Notes under the pieces: generated by a model
Seen by the model: only the letters and a program-made list of their open reading frames with translations
What the model was told of the DNA's origin: nothing
The model's database searches: none
Shown: piece after piece, positions 2,127 to 28,424 of the stretch
Position numbering within the stretch: position 1 is the stretch's first letter
Layout of the letters: the number at the start of each line of letters is the position of its first letter
Translations under genes and position numbers: made by a program
Virus record (IMG/VR): IMGVR_UViG_3300017774_006457
Span: 1 to 31,598 of that record
Strand: one strand, 5' to 3'
DNA length: 31,598 bases
Source of the DNA: a virus
Taxonomy: Duplodnaviria > Caudoviricetes

Positions 2127-3761
2127 TTAACAAGTTCCAAAATCAATAGTTTGAGTATCTTCTAGAACCATAAAAAATTGACCATCGCAAGTTAACGTAT
2201 TAGAAATAGTACATTGGGCACCTAAATCTATACAATATTGTTCACCATTTGGACCAATCCCATTCATCCCGCAATTTTTTAACTTGGCATAGACACCTGT
2301 ATATGACACAACATAACAATCGCTTGGTGGACATCTTTTGTCTGGATTATCTTTTTTAAATGATCTGCAACCACTGCGAGAACAACAATTCCGATCAGTG
2401 CATCTAACGCTTTTTTCTGCAGAACTACAATCTGCACAACAATTATTCACGGGTCCGCAACTTATGGTTGGAGTTGGGGTTGGACTTGGAGTATTTTTCG
2501 CACATGTTCCACAGCTACATGTTATATATCTACCAGGATCTTTTGGACAACTTTTTTCAGATCGAGCACATGTGCATGTTTTATTAGGGTCATTTGACTC
2601 TTGTTCATCTGCCCAACTTTCGCAGCTCGACGGGTCTTGAAAACAATTTCCAGTCATCTCACTACACTCACATGCGCTTGGCGTTGGAGTCGCACATAAT
2701 TCACAATGTATAAGTCTAGCTTCGTCACCAGGGCATTCAAAGTCACCAGCATCTGCTACTTGTTCTCCGACCTGACATCTTGCTACCCAACCAGGTCCTG
2801 CAGCATAAGCACAGTCGCAGTATGTTACTGTAAAAGTCCATGTTACTGGAGGATTAGAGCAATAGCATTCTTCTAGTGCTCCGTTTTGACCACAATTAGG
2901 ATGAAATTTATCACAAGGATCACATGTATAACCCTTTTTGTCTTTGTTTGCAATTTTGCAGTCGTTAAGTGTTCGGTATCCATTTCCATTTCCACATTCT
3001 TTTGGCTCATGCACACATTCTTCACAACGTACAATTGGGCAAAATCCTCCCCCTGTGCAAGTTCTAGATTCGCATTTAACACAAAAATCATCTTTACTTT
3101 TTACGCAATTCCAATTACATTGTCCTATTTCATATAAATCTCCTCCGCATCTCTTATCTTTACAATCTTGTGGGCATGTGTTAGTAGGAGTAGGAGTAGG
3201 AGGGGGAGTTGGTCCAATATTAACATCATAGCAATTAGGATTATCTTCTCCATTAGGACATGTACAACTAACGTTTTTACACCAACAATTCAAATAATCT
3301 GGACAACCACCTGAATTTATCCATTTGTCGCAACTTTCGTAAGAACTAAATTGAGCTCCGCAATGAAGCAAGCATTTACATGGCTGTGTTCCTGTAGGAG
3401 TTGGAGTTTTTTTAGGTTCACATGTTCCGCACTGTATATCAGGACAATCTTTTGGACATTTTTTTGTTTTTTGACCAACGCAATCTTCATCTGCCCAACA
3501 ATATGCGCAATTAGTTCCAGTATCACAGTCACAAAAATCTTTGCATGGAGGTGTGCCAGTCCTACAATTCCAACAAGTTCTAGTTTCACAATCCTTTCCA
3601 GAGCAGTCTTCTTTAACACAAATCATTTGAGGGTCATCAAAATAATACAAACCACAATCTCCACAAGCGCATGGAGGCTTAGTAGTCGGCGTAGGATCTT
3701 CTGTATATTCTAAAATTTCAGATATTATTCTTAATAATTCATTATTACGAGATTCGTCCAT
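2127..3761 (-). CDS. Extremely Cys-rich protein with Pro/Thr linkers, possibly virion surface protein
   Basis: 544 aa with dense Cys modules separated by PTPTPT linkers; GTGTAA motif upstream. Confidence 0.75.
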   Translation of the reverse strand: MDESRNNELLRIISEILEYTEDPTPTTKPPCACGDCGLYYFDDPQMICVKEDCSGKDCETRTCWNCRTGTPPCKDFCDCDTGTNCAYCWADEDCVGQKTKKCPKDCPDIQCGTCEPKKTPTPTGTQPCKCLLHCGAQFSSYESCDKWINSGGCPDYLNCWCKNVSCTCPNGEDNPNCYDVNIGPTPPPTPTPTNTCPQDCKDKRCGGDLYEIGQCNWNCVKSKDDFCVKCESRTCTGGGFCPIVRCEECVHEPKECGNGNGYRTLNDCKIANKDKKGYTCDPCDKFHPNCGQNGALEECYCSNPPVTWTFTVTYCDCAYAAGPGWVARCQVGEQVADAGDFECPGDEARLIHCELCATPTPSACECSEMTGNCFQDPSSCESWADEQESNDPNKTCTCARSEKSCPKDPGRYITCSCGTCAKNTPSPTPTPTISCGPVNNCCADCSSAEKSVRCTDRNCCSRSGCRSFKKDNPDKRCPPSDCYVVSYTGVYAKLKNCGMNGIGPNGEQYCIDLGAQCTISNTLTCDGQFFMVLEDTQTIDFGTC

Positions 3762-5761: not shown

Positions 5762-5830
5762 AATAAATTATACTAAATTTATTGATAAAATTCAAAATCT
5801 AATGTAATATAAATATAGTTCATTCTCATT

Positions 5831-6219
5831 GGGCCCGTACTGGTTTCGATTTTAGAGATCGGAATTAAAATGCAAGTGGAGGTTGAATCGAGGACTCCTT
5901 AAAAAGTTTCAATTTATATTAACTGCCAAAACAGCAAAATATAAAGGTCATATTTCAGCAAGAGTTTCTCTTGTCGAGATGACTGAATCTGTAGCCTAAG
6001 TTCTACAGCGTGACTACCTTGACACATCTATTGGATAGTTGCGTAATTAGATGTTTGAGCATAGGAAGTTTTTTTATTCTTTTTATATTCAATATTCAAA
6101 ATAAAATCGCTGAGTATGTTTGTTTTTTATCTATACAAGGCTAAAAACAAAAAGAACTAAACTTGTAGTATTTCAATTTAGATTTTTAAAAGACAGAGGT
6201 TCAATTCCTCTCGGGTCCA
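5831..6219 (+). ncRNA. ssrA: tmRNA
   Basis: 5' GGGCCCG pairs with 3' CGGGTCC-A including G3-U Ala determinant; 5' CTGGTTTCGA; T-arm AGAGG-TTCAATT-CCTCT; tag ORF 5925-5999; CCA not encoded. Confidence 0.93.
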
Positions 6220-6285
6220 AGTAAACGAATCCCTGTGTCTGCATTTTTATTAGATAATACTATAAAATCCACATATAATGCTTAT

Positions 6286-6837
6286 ATGAAGATAAGAAAA
6301 ACAAAAATAACTTGTGCTCAATGTGGCAATGAACACGAAATAAGGCAAAGCGATTATAATAGAAAAATAAAATCTGGACAAACTAAATTTTATTGTAGTT
6401 TGAAATGTTCTGGAAAAGCTGACTATAAAAATAACCCAATTAAACTAGAAAGAAATAAAGGCAATATTAATTTATTAAAAGGTTACGAAGCTAATAGATT
6501 AGATGAATATAGCCCATTTAAATATTCATTAAATAAAGCTAGATCAAGGAGCAAAGAAAAGGGACAAGAGACAGATTTAACTCTTGAATATTTAAAGCAA
6601 CTTTTAGAAAAACAAAACGGTTTATGTTCATATACAAGTATAGTTTTAGAATTACCTAGAAGCTCTCAAGATGAAGATATAAAGAAAAGTCCAACTAAAT
6701 TAAGTCTTGATAGAATTGACCCAAATATAGGATACATACAAGGAAATGTTGAATTCGTATGTTATTGCGTTAATGTTATGAAAAATGACTTTTCTAAACA
6801 AGAAATGGTAGATTTTATTAAAAAAATTAGAAATTAA
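6286..6837 (+). CDS. HNH/EndoVII-like endonuclease with N-terminal zinc finger (free-standing homing endonuclease-like)
   Basis: CAQCG...FYCSLKC finger; QNGLCSYT...SLDRIDPNIGYIQGNVEFVCYCVNVMK nuclease motif; ATG 6286 preferred to GTG 6235. Confidence 0.8.
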   Translation: MKIRKTKITCAQCGNEHEIRQSDYNRKIKSGQTKFYCSLKCSGKADYKNNPIKLERNKGNINLLKGYEANRLDEYSPFKYSLNKARSRSKEKGQETDLTLEYLKQLLEKQNGLCSYTSIVLELPRSSQDEDIKKSPTKLSLDRIDPNIGYIQGNVEFVCYCVNVMKNDFSKQEMVDFIKKIRN

Positions 6838-15681: not shown

Positions 15682-17379
15682 TTATTCTACTAAAGTGGGT
15701 AGCACTGTTGTTTCTTCAGTAACTATAATTGACTTATTATTAAAAGTCACATTTTTAAATTTATTTCTAAATTTTTGTTGGAATTTAATAAATTTTTTAA
15801 GATTTTTATTTAAAAATAAAACGTTTGGTAAATTATTCTTTAATATATTTGAAATTTTAGAGTACAAAAGAAATTTAGCGTTTTGTTGTGCTTTTTGTAT
15901 AGCTTTTTCTTTATTAACATCTTCACCTCTGCCTAATACTCCTAGTAAATTTCCTTGATATACTTGAACTTTTAAATCATTTATATTATTAAAAGTTTTG
16001 TTGAAGTTAAAAGCTGAAATAGTTTCATTTATTTTTGAATCTATAGGGTCGTAATTTCCATATCCAGAATAAACTACATATAGCATATGATCTGTACCAG
16101 CAATTTTATTAAATAAAGGATTTATTAATTCTATTGAAAAAGGCGTACCGCTAGGTATAATTCCATTCCATGTCCCTGTATTAAATTTTTTTGAAGCAGA
16201 ATATAATCCACTATACATTTGATAAAAAGCAGTCCCACTAATTGGCGTATTTTGTTTTAAATGTCCGTCAGCATCTATTCTATAGGGGTGATACCAATTT
16301 TTAGGATAAAAAGTTCCAGTATCATTAGTTGTATAACCCGAATAATTATATATGTCAAAAGCTGAAGCGTCTTTTCCAGATTCAAAAAAACGTATACCTG
16401 AAGGAAATGTTGCTTCAATATTTTCAGAGCTAGGGAAAATTGCTTTAACTGCTATCCCACTTGTAATTTTTTCATTTATAGTCTTTGGTGTTTGATAAAT
16501 AAAATTTTTCTGTCTTGTTACGGTATATTGCTTAGACCCATGTACTAAAGTATTACATAGTCCAGTTTCAGCTTTATGAGGAGAAATATAACATATTCTT
16601 TCATTTTGTCCAATTCCAGTTGAAATTAAAATTATACCTTTAAAATCTTGTTCGCCAGTATTAAGATTTTTTGTAAAACATGTTATTTTAGTCGGAACAT
16701 TATAAGCATTAAAATTATTTGTTATAACGGTTGTTGGATAAGTTAAATAAAAATTATTCAATAATGTAGTTGTCGATTCTCCAGGCAATCGATTTTCTTT
16801 CCAATTAACAAAATTTGTATTTGACATTGAATTTTTACCACTAAAAACGTTTGTTAAATTAATTGTTTTAGAAATAGAAATTTGACCAGTTTTATCAAAA
16901 CTAAATCCACTTAATATATTTTGATTTTTTATGCCACTTTCAAAAGAAAATCTAGCGTAAGGAAAAGATTCATTTGTACCTTTAAATTTTAAAATTTCTA
17001 AATTTTTGTTTGAAAAATCTATGAATTGATTAAAATAATTTTCATTGTTAATTAATTTATTATCTACTTTAGACAGATCACAAAAAGATAATTGCCCAAA
17101 AAGAGGAATTCTTTTTTGCACTTGAGCATTAAAGATAACGGAATCTGGTACTAATTTAAAATTTTTAGTTACAGTTAATTCAGTGCTTGTTGTTTCTGCT
17201 GAGATAAGATTAACAACTGCTTTTTTACTTTTAAGAGAGCCTTCAGATACTATATCTAATTTAAACTTTTTAACTTCATTGCTCGTAGATTCTACATTAT
17301 CTACAATAGAATTGCTTGCAGCTATATTTGCAGCTGGCAGACCTAGTAATTGTAAATCTTCTTCGTTTATTAAACTCAT
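15682..17379 (-). CDS. Ribozyme-associated hypothetical protein, paralogue A1
   Basis: 565 aa; shares GQLSF, ICYISPH, YSGLY...FNTGTWNGIIPSG with 21574-23091. Confidence 0.85.
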   Translation of the reverse strand: MSLINEEDLQLLGLPAANIAASNSIVDNVESTSNEVKKFKLDIVSEGSLKSKKAVVNLISAETTSTELTVTKNFKLVPDSVIFNAQVQKRIPLFGQLSFCDLSKVDNKLINNENYFNQFIDFSNKNLEILKFKGTNESFPYARFSFESGIKNQNILSGFSFDKTGQISISKTINLTNVFSGKNSMSNTNFVNWKENRLPGESTTTLLNNFYLTYPTTVITNNFNAYNVPTKITCFTKNLNTGEQDFKGIILISTGIGQNERICYISPHKAETGLCNTLVHGSKQYTVTRQKNFIYQTPKTINEKITSGIAVKAIFPSSENIEATFPSGIRFFESGKDASAFDIYNYSGYTTNDTGTFYPKNWYHPYRIDADGHLKQNTPISGTAFYQMYSGLYSASKKFNTGTWNGIIPSGTPFSIELINPLFNKIAGTDHMLYVVYSGYGNYDPIDSKINETISAFNFNKTFNNINDLKVQVYQGNLLGVLGRGEDVNKEKAIQKAQQNAKFLLYSKISNILKNNLPNVLFLNKNLKKFIKFQQKFRNKFKNVTFNNKSIIVTEETTVLPTLVE

Positions 17380-17383
17380 GATT

Positions 17384-17448
17384 AACCAAATATTCTAGCA
17401 TCGTAAACCTCTTGTACTGTGGTTTTTTATCTAGCCCAGAATTTTCAT
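17384..17448 (-). ncRNA. Predicted 65-nt circularised exon of ribozyme copy 1
   Basis: Lies between omega-G (17449) and UGGUU site complementary to IGS GACCG; ends pair (AUUCUGG/CUAGAAU). Confidence 0.55.
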
Positions 17449-17700
17449 CATTTTGTTATCGTTAAATTGTTTATATTTAACATCTTTATATTTCTATAAA
17501 GTTCAGACTATATCTTCTTTTATTTCTAAAAGTTTGGGCGCTCTTGGACAATTTTATTGTTGGTACTCAATCGTCTAGTCGTTACACCTTACAGCCTATC
17601 TTTCCCAGCTGTCTTGGCTCGGTATTGTCTTCCATTTTTTAATGGTTAAGATTTCCACCGAATTCACCCAATAACGGTCATTTAAATTTTAAAAAGAACT
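17449..17700 (-). ncRNA. Group I intron ribozyme core (IA-like) lacking an upstream exon, copy 1
   Basis: P3 UUGGGUG/CGCCCAA, P4 UUCGGU/ACCGAG, AAGGUGUAACGACUA, GAAGAUAUAGUC (P7 GACUA/UAGUC), GNRA-capped P8 and P9, ends AACAAAAUG. Confidence 0.9.
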
Positions 17701-17708
17701 AATCTTTA

Positions 17709-17734
17709 TTACACTTAATTTTTTTTATGTGTAA
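17709..17734. promoter_or_regulatory. Back-to-back GTGTAA promoter motifs
   Basis: TTACAC 17709-17714 (minus, ribozyme) and GTGTAA 17729-17734 (plus, 8 nt before ATG). Confidence 0.65.
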
Positions 17735-19044: not shown

Positions 19045-21060
19045 ATGGCAAGGTACGCGCCTCCTAATTTTTCTTACCCACCATATCCATTACCACCCGA
19101 TGAGGGAAGTGGGGTTATTAAACTCATTCCATGCTCATCTGTAGCATGTTCTTTACCACCTAAAAACTGTTATGCATTTGGTTTAATCCCCTACAGAGAA
19201 TGCTATCAAGATGGAAAATGCAAATATTGGTATGAAAATTCTTTTAAAGAACCTATTTGGACAGGTGGAGAAGCAAGCATTTTATGGGAAGATGATCCAA
19301 AAATTGGTGCTTGGATATATAAGATGTCTTTTTCAAGTAATTTTCGTGGTATCAAAGAAAAAACATTAAAACCAGATCCAAATTTTCCTAGTATTGTAAC
19401 TTTTGTATGTAATCAACTCAAAAAAGTTGAAGTTAATAGCACTTGTAAATTCGACCTATATCACAAAAGTTTACCTGTAGTCTATTGGGCTAATAAAAAT
19501 GTGGGAACAACTCCTCCTGAAATGGCAGGAATTATTAATAAATATGGAGGTGCTTTTCTAACAGCAGATAGGCCATACCAACTGTCTTCCATCGACCCGC
19601 GCTATCCTGCCGCTATTAAGATAAGATTATATTCTGATGTTAAAAATTTAACCCCTTACCCTCCTCCCCCACCACCTCCGCCTCCACCACCTCCGCCACC
19701 TCCACCACCTCCACCTCCAGTTGCTTGTTCTAATTTTTACTTATCAAATGTTAGTTGGACAAATGTTGATAATTGGGAAACGGTAACAGGTATAAAATTT
19801 GATAGATCGAAAGGGTTTAGATATATGGGTATTCAAAGATGCCCAAACCGTATAATAGGAGTTGATCCAATTTCTTTCTGCGCGGGTGGCAAAGTAGATC
19901 CTAGTTTTCCATGGCTTCTCGGATGGGTTAAAATGTTGCATTGGTTGGATTCTGATGGAGTTTTACATTACATAAAACCTCGTGAAAATGTTGCTTTAGT
20001 AAACTATGGAGGAGAAAATTCTATAATAAAAAAGTATACTGGAATTGGTACAATAGCACCTTCTAAAGAAGGAATAATGGCAATGTGTAAAAAATATAAA
20101 ATAAAATTTATAGGATCTATATTTAATGAATACTACTGCCGTCAAACAAATGAACAAGTTTTTACGGGAACTATTCAAGAAATTCAAAATGTTGTTGTTC
20201 CACCCCAACCTCCTCCACCTCCTCCCCCGCCTCCACCGCCACCAACTTCGGTTTTTTGTGACTATCCTTTCTTACAATTTGTTAATTGGGCTGGAAAACT
20301 TTCTAATGATGATTTTAGAGACTTAACAGGTAGAGTTTTAAGATCTGCATACGATAGTCCAGGTTTTGCAAATTGTCCCAATTTTATTACGAGGAGTAAA
20401 CTAACTGGACTGTGTCCTGCTCGCCAAATAAGTAATAAATTTCCATGGCTTATTGGATGGGTTAGATATTTACATTGGAGAGATTGGACTTCAAACTTTC
20501 ACGAAGAAAAAACTATTAAACCTATTGCTATAATATATAATGATAACATAAAAAAAGCATTAGGCGATGAAGCTGATGTTTTTTATAAAGATATTAAAAC
20601 ACCTTCTCAAAACGAAATAGAAACAATGTGTAGAGATCTTGGTATAGAATATGTAGGATTTGTGGGTCTTCCAGAAACTTGTACCGCAACTAGACAAAAA
20701 GTATTTTCAGCAGGTATCATACGAATTAAAGTGAATCTAATACCGCCTTGTTGTTTTTGCTCTTCCCCTCCGCCTCTGTCATCTCCACTCCTAATTCCGC
20801 CTACACAAACATCACGAATTTTAAAAACAAGCTATTGCGGAACTCTTGGGTATATAACATACCATCCAAGAGGATTTTTAAATAAACAATATCCAGAAAT
20901 AATTGGTTATGCCATGTGTAGTGGAATGAGAAATGAGTGTCCAATTGTAGAAACTATTGGAGATGCTGCTAAGTTAGCAGGTATTTTTAATTGTGCGTGG
21001 ACTGTATATGGTAAGGAATCAGGAACTCCAACCCTAAGCCTCATTGCTCGTAGTGGATAA
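19045..21060 (+). CDS. Poly-proline-linked multidomain protein with internal domain duplication
   Basis: Two long poly-Pro tracts, each followed by a domain with CPN...C...FPWL(L/I)GWVxxLHW. Confidence 0.8.
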   Translation: MARYAPPNFSYPPYPLPPDEGSGVIKLIPCSSVACSLPPKNCYAFGLIPYRECYQDGKCKYWYENSFKEPIWTGGEASILWEDDPKIGAWIYKMSFSSNFRGIKEKTLKPDPNFPSIVTFVCNQLKKVEVNSTCKFDLYHKSLPVVYWANKNVGTTPPEMAGIINKYGGAFLTADRPYQLSSIDPRYPAAIKIRLYSDVKNLTPYPPPPPPPPPPPPPPPPPPPPVACSNFYLSNVSWTNVDNWETVTGIKFDRSKGFRYMGIQRCPNRIIGVDPISFCAGGKVDPSFPWLLGWVKMLHWLDSDGVLHYIKPRENVALVNYGGENSIIKKYTGIGTIAPSKEGIMAMCKKYKIKFIGSIFNEYYCRQTNEQVFTGTIQEIQNVVVPPQPPPPPPPPPPPPTSVFCDYPFLQFVNWAGKLSNDDFRDLTGRVLRSAYDSPGFANCPNFITRSKLTGLCPARQISNKFPWLIGWVRYLHWRDWTSNFHEEKTIKPIAIIYNDNIKKALGDEADVFYKDIKTPSQNEIETMCRDLGIEYVGFVGLPETCTATRQKVFSAGIIRIKVNLIPPCCFCSSPPPLSSPLLIPPTQTSRILKTSYCGTLGYITYHPRGFLNKQYPEIIGYAMCSGMRNECPIVETIGDAAKLAGIFNCAWTVYGKESGTPTLSLIARSG

Positions 21061-21087
21061 AATCTATTACAGTTTTAAATGATTAAA

Positions 21088-21570
21088 TTATATACATCTC
21101 AAGCGGACTGTCACTATTTTAGGACCCCCACTACCTGGAGTATTCTTTTGTTCGTTACTTAGTGGAGAAAGAGCGCAACCATGCAAAGGTTTGCAGCATG
21201 TTGCACCAGACGTGTTTTTAAGACTATATTCTACCTCTTTTGGTCCAGATATAGGAATTGTAGAACCCACTAGATTTCCATCGTTAGCTGATTTACCACA
21301 TGCTGCACATCCATCATTGACTACCTTTGAGTATTCGTAATATTCTAGCTCAATTTTCTTCTTTTCTTCTACACTTACATTGCATTTACAATTTTCAGGA
21401 GGACATGTATCATTCCCAAAAGGACCAGTTGATGTATTTCCAGTAGAAATATATTCAGTGACACTTTTAACAGGTGTATATTCGGCCTGGCATAGCATAT
21501 AGGTAGAACATGAAGGCGTAGGAGTAGGGGTAGAGGTAGGGGTAGAGGTAGGGGTAGGGGTAGTAGGCAT
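21088..21570 (-). CDS. Pro/Thr-repeat, Cys-rich small protein
   Basis: MPTTPTPTSTPTSTPTPTP N-terminus; 3 nt after the paralogue A2 stop with AGGAG. Confidence 0.7.
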   Translation of the reverse strand: MPTTPTPTSTPTSTPTPTPSCSTYMLCQAEYTPVKSVTEYISTGNTSTGPFGNDTCPPENCKCNVSVEEKKKIELEYYEYSKVVNDGCAACGKSANDGNLVGSTIPISGPKEVEYSLKNTSGATCCKPLHGCALSPLSNEQKNTPGSGGPKIVTVRLRCI

Positions 21571-21573
21571 AAA

Positions 21574-23091
21574 TTAACTCCTTGTTAAGAATTTTTTCAA
21601 TTTTCTAAATTTACGATTTTCATATATAATTTCTGGAATATGTGTTTTTATAATACTACTAATTTTATTTAATATATTATATCTAAAATTTATTTTACTT
21701 TTAATAAGAGCTGAATCAATATCTTCGCTATATGCTCTTCCTGTAGATTTAATAGAACAATCGTAATCTACTAAAACTTTTGTATCTAAAACTTGGGCTT
21801 TTTTATTAATTTCACTAGGAATTATATTCGCGCCGTATGTATATAAACAATTAAATATTTTTTTATCTAATGCGTCTTCTGAAGAATATCCTGTATATAA
21901 AACAGATAAAGTATTATTCACTCCATACTCTTTGCCTCTTCCTAAATCGAATCCAATTATTTCAATAGAAAAATTTACTCCAGAAGGTATAATCCCATTC
22001 CAAGTTCCTGTATTAAAAGTTTTATTTGCGTTATAAAGGCCACTATACAATTTATAAAAATATGTATCTTTTATAGGAGTAGTTTGTTTTAATTCAGAAT
22101 TAGATAAAACTTTATGTAAAGAAGCATCGTCCAATCCATTTTTAGATTCATCAAATTGTATGCCTGTCCATTTTATTTTTTGAGATAAGTATTCTGATCC
22201 TAATTTTAAAGTAGGTAATATAATACCGCTGGGAATTCTCCTATATTGAACAATATTAGAATTAACAAATTTTTGAGTTCCAGTATCAAGATATTTTCCA
22301 GTGAATGGTTGAGCTTTATATACAACTGTATTAGTAAAGCCAGTGGTATAATCATGAGGAGAAATATAACATATTTTTGAATTTACTCCGTTGCCAGTGC
22401 TAATAACTAGTAATCCATCTATTTCTTCTATTCCACTAAAAGTATCGTATGAAGGATTAATTTTTGTAGGAATATTTAATTTATTAAATTGATTTGCAAA
22501 TAATGTATTTGGATATGGTAAATAGTAATTGCCTGTTTTTAAAAAGTTTTTATTAACAGAGGCAATTTTTTCTCCTGTTAAAATATTTTCATGAATAAAA
22601 GTTTTTTGAGAATAGACTCCTTTAAAAGAATTTGAATAACCATTTAAAGTATTTGAATTTGATATACCAGAATTATATGTAAAACGGCTAAAAGAAAGGT
22701 CTTTATCTACACCAGGAATAGAATATAAATCTTTATTTAAATGAAAAGGTTTAAAATAATCATTATTTTCTGGAGAATATGAATATTTATCAGATTTAAA
22801 AAAACTTATCTGACCAAGGAATGGAACTTGAGAATTGTATTCTGAATAATAAAAAGGGTTTTCAGATCCTAATTTAAAAGATTGGTAATTAAAATTATTT
22901 GTTCTTTGCCCTCTTTCTAAAGTTTTTGTTGTAATAAGTGGCTTTGGATTTCTTAATGTGCCAATATTAAAAATATCTAATTTTGAATTTTTTAAATAAG
23001 GGTGAGTAATAGGATTCTGATCAGTAAATTGTATTTCTGAGTCAGATATAATTTGACCAGCTAATCCTAATTTTCGAAAAGATTCTTTCAT
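21574..23091 (-). CDS. Ribozyme-associated hypothetical protein, paralogue A2
   Basis: 505 aa; paralogue of 15682-17379. Confidence 0.85.
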   Translation of the reverse strand: MKESFRKLGLAGQIISDSEIQFTDQNPITHPYLKNSKLDIFNIGTLRNPKPLITTKTLERGQRTNNFNYQSFKLGSENPFYYSEYNSQVPFLGQISFFKSDKYSYSPENNDYFKPFHLNKDLYSIPGVDKDLSFSRFTYNSGISNSNTLNGYSNSFKGVYSQKTFIHENILTGEKIASVNKNFLKTGNYYLPYPNTLFANQFNKLNIPTKINPSYDTFSGIEEIDGLLVISTGNGVNSKICYISPHDYTTGFTNTVVYKAQPFTGKYLDTGTQKFVNSNIVQYRRIPSGIILPTLKLGSEYLSQKIKWTGIQFDESKNGLDDASLHKVLSNSELKQTTPIKDTYFYKLYSGLYNANKTFNTGTWNGIIPSGVNFSIEIIGFDLGRGKEYGVNNTLSVLYTGYSSEDALDKKIFNCLYTYGANIIPSEINKKAQVLDTKVLVDYDCSIKSTGRAYSEDIDSALIKSKINFRYNILNKISSIIKTHIPEIIYENRKFRKLKKFLTRS

Positions 23092-23096
23092 AGTTA

Positions 23097-23158
23097 ATCC
23101 AGTTAGCTCCTCAACAACCTCTGACCTTTTAAGAGATTTTACGTGATTAGCTTACTAA
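23097..23158 (-). ncRNA. Predicted 62-nt circularised exon of ribozyme copy 2
   Basis: Lies between omega-G (23159) and UGGAU site complementary to IGS GUCCA; internal AAUCUCU/AGAGGUU stem; ends pair. Confidence 0.55.
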
Positions 23159-23393
23159 CATTTTGTTAACGCTAAAAAGTTTACTTTTAGCATCTTTACA
23201 TCGCTGTAAAGTTCAGACTATATCTTCCTGCTTTCGCAAGTTTGGGCGCTCATGGGCAATATTATTGTTGGGACTCAATCGCCTAGTCGTTACACCTTAC
23301 AACCTATCTTTCCCAGTTGTCTTGGCTCGGTATTGTCTACTTGAGATTTCCACCGAATTCACCCAAAATGGACTATTTAAATTTAAATGAACT
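23159..23393 (-). ncRNA. Group I intron ribozyme core (IA-like) lacking an upstream exon, copy 2
   Basis: Same core as copy 1 with compensatory changes in P6a, P7.1, P8, P9, P9.1; ends AACAAAAUG. Confidence 0.9.
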
Positions 23394-23401
23394 AAACATC
23401 T

Positions 23402-23461
23402 TTACACATTTTTTAAAAAAAAAGCTTTTTTATTTTTACTTTTTTTTATTTTTTTGTGTAA
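23402..23461. promoter_or_regulatory. Back-to-back GTGTAA promoter motifs separated by A/T tracts
   Basis: TTACAC 23402-23407 and GTGTAA 23456-23461. Confidence 0.65.
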
Positions 23462-23472
23462 TATATTTTGCT

Positions 23473-24027
23473 ATGCCAAATTTAATGCCATTTAGAAATT
23501 ATAGCGAATATGATATTATTAATTTATTTGCATGTTCAGTAGAAGCGACAAAAGGGACATTAGTAAAACCAATACAAAAATTAGAAAAAAATCCTTTAAA
23601 CTTATCTCAAAATGCTCCTGGAGCAATATATTCAAACGCAGTAAATAATTTATTTGAATTGACTGGACAAGTAGAACCTATAGCAAATTATAATGATGTA
23701 CCAACTGCTTTAGGAATTTTATTGTACGACGTAAGAGAAAAAGATGAAAATGGTGAAAAATTAATTTTAAATCCAAGAAAAGCGGCAGAAATGAATGTAG
23801 TACTACCTAAAATACATGCTGCGCCAGTATTAACTAAAGGAATAGTGCTTATAAATGATATAGATGTATCTAATCATGGATCTGGCGGTGGAAATCCATC
23901 TATAGGCGATGCCGCCTATGTAGGTGATGCGGGAAAAATTGCTACAGACGGATTAGTTAAGATTGGAAAATTTTTAAGCCCTATTGATAGTAATGGTTAC
24001 GCTTTAGTAAAAGTAGATTTTGATTAA
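23473..24027 (+). CDS. Hypothetical protein, paralogue B2 (184 aa; start corrected)
   Basis: MPNLMPFRNYSEY aligns with MPNLLPFRDYSEH of B1. Confidence 0.8.
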   Translation: MPNLMPFRNYSEYDIINLFACSVEATKGTLVKPIQKLEKNPLNLSQNAPGAIYSNAVNNLFELTGQVEPIANYNDVPTALGILLYDVREKDENGEKLILNPRKAAEMNVVLPKIHAAPVLTKGIVLINDIDVSNHGSGGGNPSIGDAAYVGDAGKIATDGLVKIGKFLSPIDSNGYALVKVDFD

Positions 24028-27968: not shown

Positions 27969-28059
27969 TTCAAAAACTTTCTATTGTAGATGTAAGTAAT
28001 GTTACAGTATTTTTGTATTTTAAAAAAGAAAATAATTAAATCTTATTAACATTTCTGAC

Positions 28060-28389
28060 TTATGTAGATAAAGAGTGTACTAATCTAACTTCTGGAATTA
28101 ACTTCCCAATGAGTTCTTCAAAGCGGAGCTTTCCCTGTATTTTCATACAAAGTTGAAAAAGCCTATTAGTTCTACTTCCCAATTGAGTCTGTAAGCCTTT
28201 CGGCCCCTAACACTTATCGGATGTCGGTAGGATCATCCATCGCGTGTTAGCCCTTACACCTACACTCCCACTATTACTAGTGGTTATCTGGGTCGCAAGC
28301 TCCTATAGCGTTGCCCACGTTTCGAACTAATAAGACTTATCGTTTTTTTTGGAGTACGACAAACCTTATCCGCTAATTGGGCGGTATGT
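28060..28389 (-). ncRNA. Unidentified large structured RNA
   Basis: GC-enriched ORF-free island with its own promoter, three GNRA hairpins, nested long-range helices; 3' end approximate. Confidence 0.7.
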
Positions 28390-28395
28390 TTATAT

Positions 28396-28424
28396 ATAGT
28401 ATAATGTATATTTATGTTTGTCAA
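28396..28424 (-). promoter_or_regulatory. Sigma70-type promoter for the structured RNA
   Basis: TTGACA-17-TACTAT. Confidence 0.7.

Follow-up and report, generated by a model that had tools for sequence, protein, structure and literature searches.

Group I introns are selfish elements that remove themselves from genes. In the c-di-GMP-II-dependent group I ribozyme of C. difficile, the target of GTP attack is a downstream site close to the start codon when the ligand is lacking, and a cut at the alternative site removes the ribosome-binding site. This tandem of riboswitch and ribozyme lies in a 5′ leader and controls translation, according to the accessible text of a review (PMC9481103). Natural back-splicing by a group I intron has been described for the ND5-717 intron of corallimorpharian mitochondria, a giant intron (Chi et al., 2019, PMC6545197). 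The circular genome splits this intron within P8, and it re-establishes the reading frame of ND5. The permuted group II ribozymes are likewise natural; in the accessible text of Roth et al. (2021, PMC8637638) they are ORF-less bacterial RNAs with reversed splice sites inside the ribozyme, which cut out a small circle and are said never to abut an ORF. The same text names the lariat-capping ribozyme GIR1, derived from group I and domesticated to make an mRNA 5′ end, which works by one-step branching to a 2′-5′ lariat and has a changed fold (PMC8637638). Engineered STS constructs run from an internal guide sequence (IGS) through ribozyme, omega-G and payload to a target U, and P1 alone suffices for circle formation in vitro in the available part of the report (2023, PMC10457212). 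This IGS-first, cut-site-last design is so far mainly known from laboratory engineering. The accessible portion of a 2023 list of natural permuted RNAs (PMC10085705) names no natural permuted group I family in phages, and we found no publication on such a family in a search of mainly open-access main texts; alignments in supplements could contain the motif.

The window, that is, the whole stretch of 31,598 nt that was analysed, is an AT-rich contig of 31.6 kb with a tmRNA and phage-like genes. Relatives of the element described here occur on IMG/VR viral contigs of up to 178 kb, and the stretch itself is represented in RNA runs from freshwater metatranscriptomes. One module is present twice, consisting of a 184/185-aa gene on the plus strand and, on the minus strand, a divergent GTGTAA motif, the ribozyme, a spacer and a 505/565-aa gene (Table 1). 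The ribozyme element is intergenic, and no host gene is restored. On balance, we read it as an intact group I ribozyme of permuted order in the leader of a phage gene, which is predicted to cut 5 nt before the start codon and likely matures an mRNA with a short leader. Measured against the systems above, as far as their accessible texts go, the element has the order of the STS constructs, which are artificial, whereas it is natural, carries a payload of 20–192 nt and has a gene right behind the target. It shares with ND5-717 a 3′ splice site that comes first, but it has a contiguous core, with the break in the loop of P1, and restores no gene. In contrast to the permuted group II ribozymes, the phage family is of group I, phage-borne and mostly cuts 2–15 nt before the AUG; no group II match (domains D1–D6) was obtained in a local Rfam scan, and the core is that of group I. 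Unlike GIR1, the phage RNA keeps a full group I core and omega-G; the local scan gave no Rfam match to the lariat-capping family, and a standard P3–P7 core fits without the P15 pseudoknot.

Table 1. Features of copy 2 of the module, with the corresponding positions of copy 1, numbered from the first letter of the window.
Feature	Position	Strand	Remark
GTGTAA motif, putative phage late promoter	23402..23407	-	
AGTTC(A/T)TT motif near the inferred transcript start	23386..23393	-	
Internal guide sequence (IGS)	23369..23375	-	G 23373 pairs with U 23097
Group I core, P2 absent	23159..23367	-	
P3	23367-23360/23248-23241	-	
P4	23356-52/23331-27	-	P5 also in core
P6a	23320-16/23303-299	-	
P7	23288-84/23220-16	-	
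P7.1	23283-78/23260-55	-	
P8	23240-27	-	
P9	23211-194	-	
P9.1	23191-85/23177-71	-	
Omega-G, 3′ splice site	23159	-	similarity of the copies ends here; junction point in RNA contig X6
Folded spacer ("exon") of 62 nt, predicted circle	23097..23158	-	ends pair: positions 2-5 with -7 to -4
IGS target	23095..23101	-	predicted cut between 23097 and 23096, 5 nt upstream of AUG
Second IGS-matching site, within ORF	23062..23067	-	omega-G joined to 23063 in one RNA contig
505-aa gene	21574..23091	-	co-inherited with the ribozyme
Divergent 184-aa gene with its own GTGTAA	23473..24027	+	lead: capsid cement/DUF2190-like
Copy 1, layout as copy 2	17379..17714	-	IGS GACCG, omega-G 17449, 65-nt spacer
Copy 1 target U	17384	-	4 nt upstream of AUG of the 565-aa paralogue

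The helices and compensatory changes that the initial annotation had listed for copy 2 all lie where it had placed them, and every pair is kept. Among the 53 modelled pairs (P8 was modelled only at its 3-pair base), 45 are unchanged relative to copy 1, six are changed on both sides, two on one side and none is broken, and the long-range P1 holds three of the eight changed pairs. The invariance claimed for P7 (23288-23284/23220-23216) and for the 3′ end (23167-23159) holds, both being identical between the copies, and close similarity does end at omega-G 23159, with identity at 180 of 208 positions in the core versus 24 of 62 in the spacer behind it. The proposed pairing of the IGS (23373-23369) with 23101-23097 through a G.U was confirmed and can be extended by two more pairs to 7 bp (23375-23369/23101-23095), a helix that unconstrained RNAfold also forms. 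A further pairing, of 23370-23364 with the 3′ end, was rejected, since it overlaps P1 and P3 and is not conserved in homologues. The Rfam check that had been suggested gave 61.3 bits with Intron_gpI (RF00028; gathering threshold 50) in a local scan, and 11 of 14 homologous loci matched the same model; a scan across the whole 31.6-kb contig missed both copies, which only small scans recover. The RNA has the P3–P9 core with the P, Q, R and S elements, P7 with a terminal omega-G, and a G.U in P1 whose U lies downstream of the core, and the presence of P7.1 presumably places it in an IA-like subgroup. The order of 5′ exon, intron and 3′ exon that restores a host RNA is not found. The element works like a group I intron but, with its reversed exon order and no restored gene, is not a strict member of the group. 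It embeds no homing endonuclease, as had been claimed, the longest stop-free frame on the RNA strand being 33 codons. Copies from other phages (L137, L108) are more closely related to copy 2 than copy 1 is, indicating by sequence relationship that the two are old paralogues and not the result of a recent duplication.

The permuted order is supported by comparison across loci. Pattern scans returned at least 19, 120, 38 and 40 viral loci and at least 119 metagenome loci, many of which were duplicates, chance matches or ordinary introns. Among the matches listed, 44 distinct cores had GTGTAA or AGTTC(T/A) just upstream, and 36 were tested after eight had been dropped with the core end or the downstream ORF missing in the fetched DNA. 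The test was blind to the target: the G located 10–11 nt before P3 and the next three bases were taken, and their complement plus U was sought in the 23 nt before the next ATG. The exact target of a locus's own IGS was present in 22 of the 36 loci, compared with a mean of 6.5 and a maximum of 16 for permuted IGSs (100,000 trials), a permutation figure that overstates independence because the loci are related and are not independent trials. In the controls, matches were seen in 75 of 1018 cases for IGSs of other types and in 4 of 157 for other gene starts. Among the 14 misses are loci outside the family (L008, L151, L263), loci with the target at a greater distance before the ATG and one G.U variant. 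Over 34 loci, the IGS and the downstream target covary; on a tree of these cores the nine IGS/target types require 17 changes, and the partners switch together. Tree sisters that differ in both partners are copy 2/L137, L114/L159, L202/L203 and L213/L272. As these 34 targets had been curated on the basis of pairing, the downstream count of 31/34 is circular. An unfitted alignment of 14 short-spacer loci has the G.U in 14/14, followed by a next pair that is GC in six, AU in five, UA in two and CG in one. In the alignment of 14 loci, 97.8% of the cells are paired (slid controls, 35–43%) and 21 of the 53 pairs show double changes, and the guanosine-binding pairs of P7 are invariant in 14/14. One locus that was found via its protein alone and has a diverged P4 (L473) also obeys the pairing rule, with the IGS GACC and with GGUU two bases upstream of the ATG. 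Taken together, the permuted order, in which the 3′ splice site is ahead of the 5′ splice site, is about as sure as a comparison of sequences allows. The design is present in more than 30 related phage sequences. A scan of 20 of 64 GTDB parts gave no core among 120 loci, most matches being chance, and none of 42 partial matches in cultured phages covered more than 26% of the query.

Seven RNA runs (X1–X7) were examined as assembled contigs, a form in which 60-nt circles are lost. In X6, one 230-nt contig (depth 3.6, no mismatches) joins 23158 to 23062 with a one-base ambiguity. The junction reads as omega-G 23159 followed by 23063; of the five GGAU sites within the next 1000 nt, the second ends exactly before this point. 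It is the sole junction from copy 2, it uses this second site (23064) and not the predicted one, and its product lacks a start codon. In X7, a 277-nt contig comes from a relative with 10 differing letters and 2 gaps versus copy 1, and the depth is 415 in this ribozyme contig versus 10 in the adjacent gene. The contig loops from its 3′ end into its own leader; its 222 aligned and 25 other letters make 247, which equals the record length minus 30 and would fit a circular unitig at k = 31. On the RNA strand, omega-G is joined just behind AGUU, 5′ of the IGS GGCCG. Attack of a freed omega-G on IGS-bound sites is a known way in which excised group I introns circularise, as described in the available part of PMC13168695. 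The two junctions likely reflect an active ribozyme, each being a single contig for which a DNA origin is possible, and the omega-G may have been freed through either ligation or hydrolysis. The selection for an intact ribozyme that the initial annotation had proposed is borne out by the IGS/target covariation over 34 loci, by the lack of a covarying splice site upstream and by these two junctions at omega-G. Its 62-nt circle has the right predicted length (23158-23097), but neither the circle nor the mRNA end with an added G was seen in the contigs of the seven runs. Contigs of X1 and X3 run uncut through the spacer and omega-G, or through the target, which means that precursor or DNA is present. 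Contig ends of X1, X2 and X7 lie near the AUG at 23081-23094 and are too weak to place a 5′ end, and copy 1 itself has no cover in X4–X6.

The X7 circle closes just behind AGUU, as the circle of a full-length intron would, which is what a conventional intron with a very short upstream exon and a 5′ splice site at AGUU predicts. This arrangement, or that of a decaying remnant, was already disfavoured and is extremely improbable. AGUU is constant while the IGS is variable, and AGUU cannot pair with IGSs of the GUCC or GCCN types. A strict upstream target is found in only 2 of 34 loci, no splice site upstream shows covariation, and the IGS G follows GTGTAA at just 8 nt in four loci, leaving no room for a 5′ exon (28 nt separate GTGTAA from the IGS in copy 2). 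On these counts a conventional upstream P1 was ruled out. The absence of any broken pair between the copies likewise argues against a decaying remnant.

The position of the cut relative to the gene points to a role in leader maturation. Within 60 nt of 123 ORF starts there are 30 GTGTAA occurrences, 25 of which lie 8–12 nt before the ATG, so this motif is a putative promoter, and SD-like motifs are present at 12 of the 123 gene starts. GTGTAA close before the ATG, together with few SD-like motifs, suggests that these phages likely use very short leaders. The predicted cut leaves a leader of 2–15 nt in 24 of 32 loci with an ORF (5 nt at copy 2). In addition, no ribozyme is present in the two most distant relatives of the gene (L474, L475), whose GTGTAA lies about 30 nt ahead of the ATG. 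Maturation of the leader is favoured on the grounds that short leaders appear typical, that 2–15 nt are left in most loci and that ribozyme-less relatives have GTGTAA near the ATG. In the other 8 of 32 loci the cut lies 20–44 nt before the ATG, three of them with their own GTGTA in between. In L176 (minus strand), a C replaces the U at the cut site behind the spacer, followed by a terminator-like hairpin and a new GTGTAA, and the ribozyme-spacer unit seems from this arrangement to have a transcript of its own. Loci of these kinds do not need leader maturation.

In the proposed mechanism, transcription would begin a few bases downstream of GTGTAA, and the IGS at the 5′ end would pair with the site behind the folded spacer, the step that covariation shows. 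By group I chemistry, a free guanosine would then attack between 23097 and 23096 and give the mRNA G-UAACU-AUG, whose short leader would resemble those of the phage's other GTGTAA genes. The freed U is predicted to attack omega-G, so that the 62-nt spacer leaves in circular form. Carrying a free omega-G, the ribozyme may go on to attack other IGS-bound sites; it would either circularise on its own leader or become joined to the mRNA at the second site, as in one contig each. Maturation of the mRNA would depend on guanosine and on ribozyme folding. The AGTTC(A/T)TT motif, which we take to resemble a boxA antitermination signal, has its GTTC 8–9 nt after GTGTAA in 18 of the 19 loci having both; it also precedes the tmRNA and shifts into the P5 loop in some loci. 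In 5800-6837 (plus strand), the phage tmRNA has ATGTAA and the ribozyme's AGTTCATT motif ahead of it, and an endonuclease-like ORF (PHROG 3322) immediately behind. In L004 and L151, related cores with a AGTTCTTT motif have another layout, in which the leader pairs at length with the sequence behind the core.

The opposite output, an OFF switch in which the cut strips the ribosome-binding site as at the alternative site of the C. difficile c-di-GMP-II ribozyme, is very unlikely. It would explain GAGGAG in the copy 2 spacer, 16–21 nt before the AUG, and the X6 product without a start codon. However, most homologues have no SD-like sequence at that place, short leaders appear normal in these phages, and no aptamer fits upstream. 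In the accessible description, the C. difficile system combines an aptamer with a 5′ splice site in the usual upstream position, both of which are absent from the phage element; no match to the c-di-GMP-II aptamer was found in 23000-23500.

Conventional relatives with the same core interrupt capsid-type genes. Two of these P2-less, P7.1-bearing introns (L014, L073) have near-identical core motifs and an IGS directly before P3, its G at -15 as opposed to -10/-11 in the permuted family; unlike the latter, they have normal exon order, restore the coding frame and often carry an ORF. In L014 the IGS adjoins P3, and an ORF-containing loop separates it from the 5′ splice site, located 612 nt upstream. 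Such comparisons suggest that the family probably originated from a phage intron without P2 that was broken in the loop joining the 5′ splice site and the IGS; the permuted order would follow if the upstream part were lost and a target downstream were captured. In a search with the protein only, the ribozyme was upstream of the gene in 15 of 20 loci, and in three others the fetched span ended at or short of the gene start. This long co-inheritance with one gene family and the lack of a mobility gene are the basis on which we infer that the ribozyme is domesticated, i.e., useful to the phage. Any intron within an essential transcript is expected to be under purifying selection for splicing, and a selfish intron could be trapped here, kept intact only since the gene is untranslatable until the ribozyme removes itself, with no benefit to the phage. 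This account, which also fits the existence of ribozyme-less gene relatives (L474, L475), is unlikely. The element lies outside the coding sequence, where one deletion would remove it, yet it is kept before genes that are only 25–40% identical; moreover, it has no embedded endonuclease and is intact even where the gene has its own promoter.

The spacer itself has features of a folded RNA. Its GC content exceeds that of the locus in 34 of 34 cases (mean 0.44 vs. 0.31), and spacers are rod-folded with paired ends, 4/4 pairs forming in 11 of 34 compared with 66 of 1108 crossed pairs. By the same chemistry, selection might act on the small folded circle, as an RNA with a structural or regulatory role to which the downstream protein perhaps binds, the short leader serving only to let the next gene use the same promoter. 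We regard this as less likely than leader maturation. Besides composition and fold, it agrees with motifs that are common within spacer subfamilies, with the persistence of the ribozyme-spacer unit where the gene has its own promoter and with a weak dsRBD/uS5-like match in the model of the 505-aa protein. On the other side, a mere linker would also need paired ends, spacer lengths range from 20 to 192 nt, no sequence is common across subfamilies, and no Rfam match was obtained in the 14 loci scanned. The circle of copy 2 lacks an AUG, contains no more than 24 open codons and restores no split reading frame, and the circle was not seen in the RNA runs. Coding circles were rejected, copy 2 lacking an AUG and the spacers a common frame. 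For both circles, no antisense target above 12 nt was found within the 31.6-kb contig. A broader reading, possible if tentative, is that phage-domesticated IGS-first ribozymes act as a circular-RNA factory, which would deliver from a single late transcript a stable folded circle with a job of its own, a GTP-capped mRNA with a short leader and a free, guide-directed RNA-cutting ribozyme; the circle would possibly act with the protein encoded directly behind.

Variation among spacers and guides was observed in several groups. Four loci (L080, L106, L038, L128) form a subtype with a spacer hairpin of 15–20 nt, whose loop repeats the IGS GCCUGUG in three. Spacer subfamilies with shared internal motifs and no Rfam match are L062/L090/L109/L119, L140/L169/L262 and L114/L159 (75–76, 140–192 and 135–140 nt, respectively). 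Copies on one contig always carry different IGS tetramers (copies 1/2; L202/L203/L169; L161/L168; L156/L213), which would avoid cross-reaction; by a rough estimate, this pattern in 4/4 contigs of the curated set is not beyond chance.

A free-standing family long kept in front of particular phage genes would correspond, within group I, to the permuted group II ribozymes, with a defined mRNA 5′ end as a testable output. It would mean that mRNA leaders and small circles are made by ribozymes during phage infection. It would also provide about 30 compact natural ribozymes (about 210–260 nt) laid out as scarless RNA circularisers, as biotechnology has built by hand.

The neighbouring genes offer leads on function. 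The 505-aa protein has 69 relatives, and its predicted model (pLDDT 82.6) has no clear fold match. It has no match in Pfam, PHROGs, Atlas, PDB sequences or Foldseek, and a single-protein locus search was also empty. The dsRBD/uS5-like arrangement in the model (Z at most 5.2 over 48 residues, rmsd 1.9) is only a lead, as Z values under 8 are common by chance. The divergent 184-aa-type gene is upstream in 12 of 34 loci; Phage_cement was assigned to 13% of the members of its cluster at 0.97, which is likewise a lead only. Elsewhere in the window, 2127-3761 and 19045-21570 code for Cys-rich and Pro/Thr-repeat proteins without a Pfam or PHROG match. An ORF-free, GC-richer stretch at 28040-28400 (minus strand), with no Rfam match, lies upstream of a 749-aa gene, presumably for ribonucleotide reductase alpha, and is a candidate structured RNA.
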